A DNA stretch of 64,000 nucleotides, from the IMG/VR virus record IMGVR_UViG_3300045740_000123, positions 1-64,000 of that record; one strand, 5' to 3'. The DNA comes from a virus. Under the pieces are notes generated by a model that was given only the letters and a program-made list of their open reading frames with translations, was not told the origin of the DNA and ran no database searches. The stretch's first letter is position 1. Every line of letters starts with the position of its first letter. Shown here piece after piece: positions 39,889 through 64,000 of the stretch. The position numbers and the translations under genes were made by a program.

Positions 39889-40275
39889 ATGAAACTCTAT
39901 GGCCCATACACTCGCAAAGATGGCAGACAACATGTCATTCTTTACGAAAATGGCAAACGCAAAACAGTAAGCTATCCCAAGTATTTACTTGAGACAAAGC
40001 TTGGTCGATCCCTTTTGCCTCATGAAACCTGTGATCACATTGATGGCAATCCTTTAAACAATTCTTTAGATAACTTGCAACTGCTATCCAGAGCGGATAA
40101 CATACGCAAGCACGCAGCTCTTTTACCTGCAGAGCTGGGAACTTTCACTTGTCCTATTTGTTTGTGTTCATTTACAAAACGAATGCATAACACTAGGCAC
40201 AATCGAAAGCAAGGAAAACGTGGACCTTATTGTTCACGTTCATGTGCAGGTAAAGCTGGCCGACTAGCCCAATAG
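39889..40275 (+). CDS. HNH homing endonuclease
   Basis: LGRSL..HETCDHIDGNPLNNSLDNLQLLSR..N; CPIC...YCSRSC; stop lies in tRNA D-loop. Confidence 0.88.
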   Translation: MKLYGPYTRKDGRQHVILYENGKRKTVSYPKYLLETKLGRSLLPHETCDHIDGNPLNNSLDNLQLLSRADNIRKHAALLPAELGTFTCPICLCSFTKRMHNTRHNRKQGKRGPYCSRSCAGKAGRLAQ

Positions 40276-40335
40276 GAAGCAGGCAAGCGACTTAAAATCG
40301 CTCAAGTCCCGGTTCGAATCCGGGGTCGGCTACCA
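40258..40335 (+). tRNA. trnL: tRNA-Leu(UAA), short variable loop, encoded CCA
   Basis: GGCCGAC/GTCGGCT acceptor, AGCGA-CTTAAAA-TCGCT anticodon arm, CCCGG-TTCGAAT-CCGGG T arm, ACCA end. Confidence 0.9.
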
Positions 40336-61912: not shown

Positions 61913-62461
61913 TTATACAGATTCATTGGGTGTTTTCCAGAAATAATCATCGCATTCTCCAAGCCGACCCCACTTCTCTTCCCGATAATCAATATCTTTA
62001 GTTAAAAAATCAATAGCGTTTTTCAATATTTGGATATTGTCTTTGGCGTGGCCAAGCATTGTATTGCATCTATGGCATAAAAGCCCTCTAACCTTGCCTG
62101 TTTCATGGCAATGATCTACACAAAATGTTTTCTTTGGAGCGGGACTGTTTGTTTTGCATATGGCGCAACAACCTTTTTGAATTTCCAGAATTTGTTTGTA
62201 TCTACCCCTAGGTAAACCATAGGAACGCAAACGATCAAGATCATTAGCGTGTTCTAAATTGTTTTGGCGCCATCGATTGTAATTTTCTTGATGGCGCTTT
62301 TTGTTTTTTCTTGACCATTCCCGGCTGTACTCGTTTGTACAAACACGGCACCAAGTATTTAAACCATCTTTGTTTTTCTTTGCTTTGTTAAAAGCATCCT
62401 TGGATTTAATCTCTAGGCATTTGGTGCATTTTTTCGTTGGGAGTTTGCCAGAAATAGTCAT
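61913..62461 (-). CDS. endonuclease VII-type homing endonuclease fused to displaced C-terminus of upstream gene
   Basis: CTKC..CRVC; YGL....Y...L..Q.GCCAIC....VDHCHETGKVRGLLC.RCN..LG; ends KWGRLGECDDYFWKTPNESV. Confidence 0.9.
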   Translation of the reverse strand: MTISGKLPTKKCTKCLEIKSKDAFNKAKKNKDGLNTWCRVCTNEYSREWSRKNKKRHQENYNRWRQNNLEHANDLDRLRSYGLPRGRYKQILEIQKGCCAICKTNSPAPKKTFCVDHCHETGKVRGLLCHRCNTMLGHAKDNIQILKNAIDFLTKDIDYREEKWGRLGECDDYFWKTPNESV

Positions 62462-63095
62462 CGCACTCGCCTAGGCGCCCCCATTTTAACGCTTTTTCAG
62501 AGTCAAAGTATCGAGTCGATACCTTAAAGTCTGGTGTCTTTAGATCGTGGTTGGTGAGCGATGGATCAACCATTCGACAACGATTGTTGGGATAAGCGCC
62601 AATTTGACCGTTGTCCAAAGCCACAATGTTGTGGGACTTATGCTCGTCAGGAAATTCCGCAAAGTAAAAATCCGGTTCGTTCCTATGAGGATGATAATTG
62701 TCAACCGTAAATAGGTATGTGCCTTTCATTACACCTGCACTACGTGTCATAACTTGAAACTCCATATTGAAGATCAAGTTCTTTTCGACAACCGTAAGAC
62801 CATGATCAAATCCATTCCAGAACTGCAGGTCAGTTAGCTCTAGGTCAGGAGTGGGTGCTTGAGGTTTGTCCGGATAATCTGGATCCCATGCCAGGAATGC
62901 ACTGATGGGAAGCTTGTCGTAAAGGGCTCCGTACTCAGTAAGATAAGTCTCAAACTGAAGTGCTCTACCAGTTAAAGATTTACAACTTACCCAATAACCA
63001 GGCGTATATTCACCATGACCGTCTCTTAGGTCACGTAAGTATTCACGCCTTACCCAAACCTTGACGGGCGGGACATTGGCCACAAGAGTTGTCAC
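62406..63095 (-). CDS. conserved hypothetical phage protein
   Basis: 229 aa; LVANVPP..VWVRREYL.D...GHGE, EHKSHN..ALDNGQ..AYPNNR. Confidence 0.7.
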   Translation of the reverse strand: MTTLVANVPPVKVWVRREYLRDLRDGHGEYTPGYWVSCKSLTGRALQFETYLTEYGALYDKLPISAFLAWDPDYPDKPQAPTPDLELTDLQFWNGFDHGLTVVEKNLIFNMEFQVMTRSAGVMKGTYLFTVDNYHPHRNEPDFYFAEFPDEHKSHNIVALDNGQIGAYPNNRCRMVDPSLTNHDLKTPDFKVSTRYFDSEKALKWGRLGECDDYFWQTPNEKMHQMPRD

Positions 63096-63221: not shown

Positions 63222-63428
63222 TCAGGATTTACTTCTTTGATAACGCCTTGCTGCGCGTCCAGCAAGTTTTGCTTTTCTGGTGTTTGGTACAAATTGTTTG
63301 CCTTCGCGGCTAGCCTCGCGTTTCTTTTGGTCAGTCTCTTGCCGTTCTTCTTTAGATAATGAGGCCCAGGCAGACTCAGGTAGATAACGTTTGGTGTATC
63401 CCTTTTGAATTGCTTTATCTGCCATCAT
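63222..63428 (-). CDS. small basic protein
   Basis: TKRYLPESAWASLS.EER.ETDQKKR...GKQFV.NT. Confidence 0.7.
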   Translation of the reverse strand: MMADKAIQKGYTKRYLPESAWASLSKEERQETDQKKREASREGKQFVPNTRKAKLAGRAARRYQRSKS

Positions 63429-63736
63429 TTACTATCCTTGTATTTCTTTGCAGCTTCTTTAGCTTTACCGCGCTTTTCATACTCATCTTTCGTCATCCAT
63501 TTCTCCTTGCCCCACTTCTCCAGGGACTTCTGCTTCTCACCTTTACCTCCTTTGTATCCACCGCCTGCACTCTTGTATTCCTGTGCCACAAGCTGAGCTT
63601 TTCTAGCCGAAATAATTAGTTAGCCTTACGGCTACGACCATTCTCCTGGTTTACCGCCACGGCCTTCACGCATAACTTTGTTTTTGATGCGCTCACGCAG
63701 GTCTGGTTTTGTGTACTTGCTTTTATCTTCAGCCAT
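63425..63736 (-). CDS. small basic protein (DUF5872-like) interrupted by 27-nt stop-containing insert; candidate translational bypass
   Basis: MAEDKSKYTKPDLRERIK...GGKPGEWS | ARKAQLVAQEYKSAGGGYKG...; not in ORF track because of internal stops. Confidence 0.8.
63608..63637 (-). other. putative ribosomal bypass (hop) element
   Basis: TCG TAG CCG TAA GGC TAA CTA ATT ATT TCG: matched codons, stop in TAGCC-GTAA-GGCTA hairpin. Confidence 0.7.
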
Positions 63737-64000
63737 AACTTCCTCGCTCTTTAAGATAAGTGACTGCGTTTGTCAATACATCTATATTATCACCAAATAA
63801 ACCTAAGGCTCTATTGCACTCTTTGCATAATAAACCTCTGAACTCATTGGTTTGATGATTATGGTCCATGGCTAAAGATTGTTTATCCTTGGGAGGCTCT
63901 TGGCAAATTGCGCATAAACCTTCCTGGGACTCAAACACAATGTCGTATTGCTCTTTTGTTATCCCTCTGCGTTCGTATTTTTTGTGATTATGATGCAATA
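63729..64000 (-). CDS. endonuclease VII-type homing endonuclease (5' part outside window)
   Basis: GITKEQY.....Q.GLCAIC.....LAMDHNH.T.EFRGLLCKECNRALG. Confidence 0.85.
   Translation of the reverse strand, partial: LHHNHKKYERRGITKEQYDIVFESQEGLCAICQEPPKDKQSLAMDHNHQTNEFRGLLCKECNRALGLFGDNIDVLTNAVTYLKERGSYG

Follow-up and report, generated by a model that had tools for sequence, protein, structure and literature searches.

A candidate gene 60-like translational bypass carried by an EndoVII-type homing cassette in a probable cyanophage

The interrupted gene and its homologues

On the minus strand of a 64,000-nucleotide (nt) stretch of viral DNA (bases 1-64000 of the 85,144-bp virus genome IMGVR_UViG_3300045740_000123, G000; hereafter, the window), a small DUF5872-like open reading frame (ORF; 63736..63425, with ATG at 63736-63734 and TGA at 63427-63425) is broken by a short gap that is framed by two identical serine codons (63608-63637) and adjoins a homing endonuclease gene of the EndoVII type. 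In minus-strand order, the gene reads GGA GAA TGG TCG, followed by TAG CCG TAA GGC TAA CTA ATT ATT, a second TCG and then GCT AGA AAA GCT CAG. The coding gap between the two UCG codons spans 24 nt (63611..63634) and holds three in-frame stops, and the displacement from one Ser codon to the other is 27 nt. An earlier note, made from the letters of the window, had described this layout for the minus-strand gene at 63736-63425 and had proposed that skipping 27 nt rejoins WSARKAQ within a 94-amino-acid (aa) protein. The letters, when read back, confirm the layout, the two halves of 34 and 60 codons give a joined product of 94 aa, and an uninterrupted 94-aa ORF with a contiguous ...QWSARKSQ... in Synechococcus phage S-EIVl agrees with the proposed junction.

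The first of the two serine codons (Ser34, UCG, 63635..63637) is referred to below as the take-off codon, and the second (UCG, 63608..63610) as the landing codon. The UAG stop that opens the gap also opens a hairpin, UAGCC-GUAA-GGCUA (63621..63634), which takes up the first 14 nt of the gap and folds into a 5-bp stem with a GNRA loop. The AU-rich remainder (63611..63620, ACUAAUUAUU) contains no UCN triplet in any frame, and ATTATT abuts the second TCG. The placement of the first stop within this hairpin, at 63634-63621, and of ATTATT at the end of the gap, before landing, had likewise been noted beforehand, and both were found again. The 24-mer occurs once in the window, with no match in 100 shuffles even when three mismatches were allowed, and the motif TAGCC-N4-GGCTA occurs once in the 85,144-bp genome. 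Among the Ser codons in the long ORFs of the genome, TCG, which serves at take-off and again at landing, is the least frequent (9%). ARAGORN detected no tRNA-Ser in the genome, the only tRNA being tRNA-Leu(TAA) at 40258-40335; thus, no phage-supplied decoder is evident.

Upstream, the ATG of the gap-broken gene is overlapped by 8 nt (ATGGCTGA) by the end, at 63729, of the nuclease ORF, the 3' part of which lies at 63729..64000 on the same strand, the full ORF (63729..64376 of the genome) running past the end of the window. This overlap of an EndoVII gene with the start codon is as previously described, and the nuclease matches PF02945 (Endonuclease_7, of the His-Me finger type; Pfam, E=1.3e-23 and 1.3e-22). 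Downstream, the C-terminal half (C-half) comprises 60 codons and the TGA (63425..63607), which forms an ATGA overlap with the start codon of the next gene (63222..63428).

S-EIVl is the sole cultured relative of this phage: megablast of the region against GenBank phages gave no match, S-EIVl alone was recovered at lower stringency, and a 748-aa protein of the window matches only S-EIVl (72.5%). With S-EIVl as the sole basis for the assignment, the phage is probably a cyanophage. A protein-guided scan of IMG/VR, which yielded an unbiased set, returned 80 loci, with the junction locatable in 79; 47 of these are uninterrupted, and the other 32, to which the window adds a 33rd carrier, have an insert at exactly the same codon. 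The alignment of homologues and the search for the insert in relatives, both suggested in the earlier note, thus yield a contiguous WSARKAQ-type junction in S-EIVl and 47 IMG/VR loci, and the insert in 32 IMG/VR loci beside the window. In uninterrupted homologues, Pfam DUF5872 was aligned across the junction (residues 12-74, E=2.6e-4, below the gathering score), and in an AlphaFold (AF2) model the junction is predicted to fall at the start of helix 2, in a confident helix-loop-helix (residues 11-47, pLDDT ~87). The Ser34 codon is spelled AGT, TCT, TCG, TCA or AGC in non-carriers. Judging from these alignments, the two halves are one conserved gene. In one carrier with a 32-nt gap (L258, metagenome contig Ga0208162_1001999, minus strand, ~8897), the C-half is fused in frame with a homologue of 63222..63428, a hint that the two small proteins are functionally linked.

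Contigs from four runs, two with DNA and two with RNA libraries, were compared at the locus. Those from the independent DNA runs X5 and X3 contain the 27 nt and have no indels there, and in a random-primed metatranscriptome a contig of 696 nt (89% alike) crosses from the nuclease gene over the gap to the C-half with no skip. No contig without the gap was seen in the four runs, of which the two RNA runs cover small parts of the stretch. Given that the insert is present in more than 50 non-identical metagenome contigs as well as in the independent DNA runs, an assembly artefact, raised at the outset as a possible trivial explanation, was rejected.

The nuclease cassette and selection on the two halves

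The insert and the nuclease gene co-occur strictly, a point that the earlier note had proposed to test: in the protein-based set, a nuclease ORF, whole or as a remnant, immediately precedes the gene in 33 of 33 carriers and in 0 of 47 non-carriers. In the window genome, the full nuclease ORF (64376..63729) encodes 215 aa from a GTG that overlaps the TGA of a stranded gene fragment, the stub described below. The N-terminal two thirds of the nuclease contain five CxC/CxxC pairs (LCYCKK, CRECG, CKDC, CSKC and CKTC) ahead of the EndoVII domain, which probably bind zinc and serve in DNA recognition. Because the first Cys pair, located upstream of the first ATG, is conserved, the GTG is the probable start of the ORF.

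When carriers were compared with closely related non-carriers, the boundaries of a mobile unit became apparent. On both flanks, carrier L004 matches non-carrier L051 at 99-100% identity, and the carrier has ~0.77 kb extra after the parental ...CAGTG (the 3' edge in this pair was taken from BLAST coordinates); in L004, a truncated stub with the first 32 parental codons persists ahead of the nuclease gene. The window genome has the same layout, with the stub at 64468..64373, its ATG mutated to ATA, and a cassette of 766 nt that extends from the base after CAGTG through the landing codon. Further carrier/non-carrier pairs are L002/L048 (97%) and L012/L023 (96%). Codons 1-34 of the interrupted gene (63635..63736, the HomR-like N-half of ORF2), the last of which is the take-off codon, are recoded and form a distinct allele in all carriers; within the window genome, this recoded N-terminal half (N-half) and the stranded stub are 61% identical at the nucleotide level. 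Thus, the N-half that is now joined to the gene is not the parental one, since the parental codons are stranded upstream and the cassette copy is recoded.

The alignment of carriers indicates that the landing codon is also supplied by the cassette: in L012, TCG is followed by the parental GCA CGC, and the near-twin L023 has AGT in its place. The 3' edge of the cassette coincides with the landing codon in some carriers and lies 9 nt further in others, including the window, where GCT AGA AAA (63599..63607) is the synonymous spelling, contributed by the cassette, of the first three post-landing codons (parental type GCA CGY AAG). In GCTAGA carriers, downstream identity to non-carriers begins at nt 7; in the rest, it begins at nt 1. 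The Ser34 codon is carried twice by the cassette, before and after the stop-laden spacer. On this comparative evidence, the gap is the 3' end of a mobile cassette that consists of the nuclease gene, recoded codons 1-34, the gap and a second Ser codon, and is inserted at the Trp33-Ser34 codons of the DUF5872-like gene. The locus shows presence/absence polymorphism at one site in near-identical genomes and a variable co-conversion edge, as expected of a free-standing, intronless homing gene.

Among 25 unique carrier sequences, the recoded N-half (HomR) shows dN 0.040, dS 0.90 and omega 0.044, compared to a dN of 0.113 for the N-half of non-carriers. With regard to a possible nascent-peptide signal upstream of take-off, this N-half is a distinct, more basic allele under stronger constraint, and it is less uniform in the divergent cassettes with 29-33-nt displacements. 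The nuclease ORF has an omega of 0.074 (19 unique full-length copies) and a dS of 1.5. Given these dS values (0.9 for HomR and 1.5 for the nuclease), the cassettes are old. For the C-half, omega is 0.081 in carriers and 0.062 in non-carriers, that is, the relaxed selection on the downstream half against which the earlier note had cautioned was not seen. Between the window and its carrier-only neighbour L008, there are 14 synonymous codon differences and one nonsynonymous difference. The C-halves of carriers are mosaic, some being 96-99% identical to those of non-carriers, which is indicative of recent invasions or recombination.

The fate of the nuclease gene could be scored in 43 non-identical loci: it is full-length in 35 (recognized by an open frame in 33 and by a single match over the full length in two), truncated in six and absent in two. 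The gap and both halves are kept in all 43, including loci with 29-nt frame-changing gaps and no nuclease gene. By these measures, purifying selection acts on the two halves, and does so also in loci that retain a decayed nuclease gene or have lost it. A decayed cassette was found in L197 (IMGVR_UViG_3300049043_000164, ~1022-1039), with single-base indels in both halves and GGCTA changed to GGCCA. This is the only decayed copy among more than 50 loci, the C-half being intact in every other cassette locus analysed; thus, decay is detectable when present.

Gap variants, the proposed bypass and rival explanations

Additional pattern scans for ...GAR TGG TCG TAG in IMG/VR and in JGI metagenomes brought the collection to at least 51 unique cassettes and at least 23 natural gap variants among the matches listed. 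The take-off-to-landing displacements in the listed cassettes are 23, 24, 27, 29, 32 and 33 nt. In the 23-, 29- and 32-nt classes (at least nine unique cassettes), the C-half is in the +2 frame relative to the N-half, yet it is intact, with pN 0.16 vs. pS 0.77 in the C-halves of these frame-changed cassettes. The 29-, 32- and 33-nt classes have a C-half-frame stop zero or one codon before the landing codon, with no start or near-cognate start in between; thus, readthrough, frameshifting and restart upstream of Ala35 are excluded in these variants. Frame-changing gaps accompanied by intact, constrained C-halves lend indirect support to the production of one continuous protein across the gap.

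In the protein-based scan, the take-off codon is TCG in 33 of 33 carriers and is directly followed by TAG in all 33. In 23 of the 23 listed variants, no TCN occurs in any frame between take-off and the TCN codon that immediately precedes Ala35, and among the 51 unique listed cassettes this landing codon is TCG in 47, TCT in three and TCA in one. Downstream of landing, the ARKAQ codons differ only synonymously among carriers, the Arg codon being AGA, CGT, CGC or CGG.

The stem of the hairpin is nearly invariant although nearby synonymous sites are close to saturated: per-site diversity is 0-0.04 in the stem vs. 0.3-0.72 at the fourfold sites of flanking codons. The form UAGCC-GNRA/UUAG-GGCUA is found in 22 of the 23 listed variants, and five of the six loop sequences (GUAA, GUGA, GCAA, GGGA and UUAG) are of stable tetraloop types. 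In L178 and L183 (the 23-nt variant), the GGGA loop makes a strong GGGAGG. The AU-rich 3' part has an A+T fraction of 0.73-1.00 in 23 of 23 variants and is G-free in 21 of 23. In L036 (3085-3135) and L203, the gap reads TAG CTA TAA TAT TAA ATA ATT, with no UAGCC/GGCUA stem, and a full-length nuclease match is kept; the UAGCU of this type can pair instead with the GGCUA formed by the landing codon and GCTAGA. Pairing of UAGCCG with CGGCUA after the landing codon is restricted to GCTAGA-type cassettes. A conserved larger structure was considered and rejected: no fold of longer context reached a significant z-score, and the variants are unlike one another in their outer helices. The same hairpin was also sought in other genes by an IMG/VR scan for TAGCCGTAAGGCTAA, which covers the GUAA-loop form only and gave 21 family matches and 59 others. 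The 59 non-family matches are ordinary coding sequence in another frame or chance occurrences, none combining a repeated codon with an AU tract; thus, there is no evidence that the gap has moved to other genes.

The comparison supports the reading first proposed in the earlier note, and we consider it likely that the EndoVII-type homing cassette imposes a gene 60-like programmed translational bypass on its target gene, a bypass that would also keep the nuclease target site split. Under this scheme, peptidyl-tRNA-Ser would be paired with UCG in the P site when UAG enters the A site, and the compact UAGCC-GNRA-GGCUA hairpin would form at the A site and hinder or delay termination. The tRNA would then unpair, and the ribosome would slide over the G-free, UCN-free AU-rich tract until the tRNA re-pairs at the first UCN, with decoding resuming at Ala35 to give one 94-aa protein. 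At the DNA level, direct fusion of the recoded N-half to the C-half would recreate the site around Trp33-Ser34, and the gap would keep the two halves of the site apart, with uninterrupted alleles being cut and converted by the nuclease, by the logic described for MobA and gene 60. Both copies of the site are interrupted in carriers, and this geometry suggests that the nuclease target is split. A carrier would thus be immune to its own nuclease, with the protein unaltered, because the gap splits the recognition site.

Several observations weigh against the bypass interpretation. The compared loci directly show how the cassette is built, that its insertion is polymorphic, that its signals are conserved and how the reading frames relate; the hop itself and its efficiency we infer from that comparison. 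The universality of the take-off codon and the following stop is drawn from the 33 carriers of the protein-based scan because the later scans required TCGTAG. No covariation was found in the stem, which is invariant, so that the support for an RNA structure comes from conservation and loop type, and the L036-type 24-nt variant (three loci) is without the stem. There is no Shine-Dalgarno (SD)-like triplet 5-7 nt before the landing codon, the sole RAGG being located in the hairpin arm, 9-19 nt upstream. In the 23-nt variant of L178 and L183, the C-half frame is open through the gap to an ATG inside GAATGG, so that a separate start of the C-half is conceivable. The selection test for the C-half is partly confounded since homing can re-import C-halves from intact alleles, which inflates the apparent purifying selection. 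Finally, the contig from the RNA library is weak evidence against excision at the RNA level because DNA carry-over is possible.

A split gene, in which translation stops at UAG to release a 34-aa peptide, the C-half is re-initiated in or after the gap, and the pieces cooperate non-covalently, appears improbable. The in-frame 24- and 27-nt variants mostly contain AUU/AUA triplets 4-10 nt after the RAGG of the hairpin arm, an ATG in the C-half frame exists in the 23-nt variant, and many C-halves have a Met or Val 6-7 codons past the landing codon. Moreover, functional phage genes split by nucleases are known, gp39/gp60 and NrdA being examples given in a preprint on MobA elements (bioRxiv 10.1101/2022.08.31.505936). 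However, in nine of the 23 listed variants, there is no canonical or near-cognate start between the last stop in the C-half frame and the landing codon, and the invariant SARKAQ would go untranslated if the C-half began at the downstream Met or Val, even though carriers vary there only synonymously. The second Ser codon, which is always the first UCN after take-off, is left unexplained by re-initiation, and the AF2 model predicts that the junction lies inside one confident helix-loop-helix (residues 11-47).

We regard as quite unlikely the possibility that the cassette has inactivated a dispensable gene, the C-half being conserved through recent homing into intact alleles, as the mosaic carrier C-halves with up to 96-99% identity to non-carriers might suggest. 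The age of the cassettes (HomR dS 0.9, nuclease dS 1.5) speaks against such inactivation, as does the retention of the gap and both halves in the six loci with a truncated nuclease gene and the two without one. Furthermore, carrier-only lineages gain mostly synonymous changes in the C-half, a start codon and a recoded N-half under strong purifying selection, both carried by the cassette, would be pointless in a dead gene, and there is only one decayed copy among more than 50.

Removal of the 27 nt from the transcript, by a minimal intron or other processing, followed by normal translation of the mended mRNA, is compatible with the 3-nt direct repeat that flanks the insert and with the stable hairpin within it. 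Nevertheless, this explanation seems very unlikely: none of the four excision registers over the TCG repeat gives a 5' exon ending in U together with an insert ending in G, as needed for group I introns, and no Rfam hit, intron or other, was obtained in 63300-64000 at E<=1. The two RNA libraries yielded no contig that skips the 27 nt and one that retains the gap, although this evidence is weak. In addition, the conserved features (a stop in the A site, matched codons and the first-UCN rule) are signals of decoding rather than of splicing. It is scarcely credible that the hairpin and a U-rich tail act as a weak intrinsic terminator or attenuator, by which the nuclease and the N-half would be expressed separately from the C-half: a loose consensus scan does flag TAGCCGTAAGGCTA followed by ACTAATTATT, the G-free last 10 nt of the gap, as terminator-like, but the stem is merely 5 bp, the tail is A-rich rather than U-rich in the 24-nt class, the matched codons and frame-changing lengths are unexplained, and the RNA-library contig runs through the hairpin.

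Comparison with known systems

If the gap is indeed bypassed by ribosomes, the case would represent a second natural family of the rare T4 gene 60-type bypass. The T4 record AF158101 shows GGA TAGCC TTCG GGCTA TCT...GAGATTATT GGA within a 50-nt bypass feature, with mobA two genes upstream of gene 60 and gene 60.1 between them. The features of T4 that the earlier note had cited, that is, matched codons, UAGCC-UUCG-GGCUA, ATTATT before landing and a nearby mobA, were all found in this record, with mobA being two genes upstream. As in T4 gene 60 and the MobA element, the take-off and landing codons of the gap described here are matched for one tRNA, with wobble variants. As in T4 gene 60, a UAG immediately after take-off opens a compact stem-loop capped by a stable tetraloop, the stem being spelled UAGCC/GGCUA in both cases, and ATTATT precedes landing. 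The cassette differs from gene 60 in its codons (Ser UCG instead of Gly or Asp), in the length of its gap (20-30 nt, compared to typically 50), in a 5-bp stem that excludes the take-off codon, in the lack of a mini-SD 5-7 nt before landing and in a nascent chain of 34 aa.

The MobA-element cassettes have been found only in topoisomerase genes of T4-like phages/Myoviridae, always with the MobA element, the nuclease of which is a MobA-family HNH endonuclease that is replaced by GIY-YIG or VSR in a few cases (Manning & Atkins, bioRxiv 10.1101/2022.08.31.505936). According to that preprint, the self-immunity role of the T4 gap, through splitting of the nuclease site, was shown experimentally. The parallels with the MobA element extend beyond the recoding signals. 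GNRA loops occur in some of its clades, and its gaps vary in length, down to 20 nt, with frame-changing ones included. Its nuclease ORF, too, has overlapping out-of-frame ORFs at both ends, with an insert-encoded homologous stretch and then the gap at the 3' end, the element sometimes extending 9 nt beyond the landing codon. In both systems, the nuclease gene decays or is lost and the gap stays. In contrast, the target here is a 94-aa DUF5872-like gene rather than the gene for the large subunit of topoisomerase II, and the nuclease is a 215-aa EndoVII protein of PF02945 (BLASTP against RB55 MobA, E=2), whereas MobA weakly matches PF01844. The lineage is S-EIVl-like, probably a cyanophage, from freshwater, and what remains upstream is a stranded stub of 32 codons instead of a functional split subunit.

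The T4 gap and the gap in the window share 16 letters, too few to settle between homology and convergence. That the present cassette carries an independently evolved, minimal signal, comprising a 5-bp GNRA hairpin at the stop, 5-15 nt of G-free AU-rich RNA, no landing SD and a 34-residue nascent chain, and acting on ribosomes that are probably cyanobacterial, is conceivable, but we hold this view with some doubt. A full-text literature search on bypassing with cyanophage and on DUF5872 found no report of this case.

Short inserts that ribosomes are proposed to skip also exist elsewhere. The 'byp' elements in the mitochondria of Magnusiomyces capitatus are short mobile inserts in coding sequences, where ribosomes skip between matched codons; they occur in many copies per genome, in many genes, and are not known to belong to a nuclease cassette. 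In the phage genome analysed here, the hairpin motif is single. In the terminase gene of Streptomyces phage Hau3, candidate UUA-mediated bypass of 10-nt inserts has been described (Antonov et al., RNA Biol 2023, PMC10732093). This case resembles ours in that short non-coding inserts break a phage gene and ribosomes are proposed to hop over them, with take-off and landing codons and flanking RNA structure invoked (PMC10732093). In Hau3, however, the trigger is proposed to be an A-site UUA that is rare and tRNA-limited, and the proposed role is regulatory, as opposed to the stop codon in a hairpin found here. Furthermore, the Hau3 gap is 10 nt long and homing is not mentioned (PMC10732093), compared to 20-30 nt within a nuclease cassette here.

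Long-gap programmed bypassing has been near-unique for decades. The case described here differs from those in the MobA survey in the target gene, in the unrelated nuclease family, in the phage lineage (and probably the host phylum) and in the lack of a landing-site SD, an element thought to matter in T4; if it is a true bypass, it would separate the essentials of bypassing from T4-specific features. The case also favours the view that the purpose of the gap is to split the target of a homing nuclease without change to the protein. If the minimal signal did evolve independently, coding-gap bypass would be a general self-immunity device acquired by different homing endonuclease families rather than a one-off of T4 MobA, and the length series of 23, 24, 27, 29, 32 and 33 nt would be a ready-made mutagenesis set. 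The natural gap variants, at least 23 in number, form a test set for reporters. These observations are relevant to the fields of recoding and mobile elements and also to annotation, in which such genes are now called two fragments or pseudogenes.

A parallel in nuclease family lies in the window itself, among free-standing HNH/EndoVII self-protecting cassettes. A second EndoVII-type ORF (61913..62461, minus strand) is located in the 3' end of the ORF 62406..63095 (window 61913-63095), and the two ORFs share nearly the same last ~18 residues (KWGRLGECDDYFW.TPNE), the tail of the target being duplicated and recoded. Like the cassette in the DUF5872-like gene, such cassettes combine a nuclease of the same family, presence/absence polymorphism and a target piece that is duplicated and recoded. 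The difference is that the cassette studied here rebuilds the head of its gene and adds a stop-laden gap at the join; at 61913..62461, the duplication concerns the tail of the gene, so that this cassette can do without a coding gap. Among relatives, L011, L031 and L034 contain an ORF of the 62406..63095 type without the nuclease, and L066 has both.

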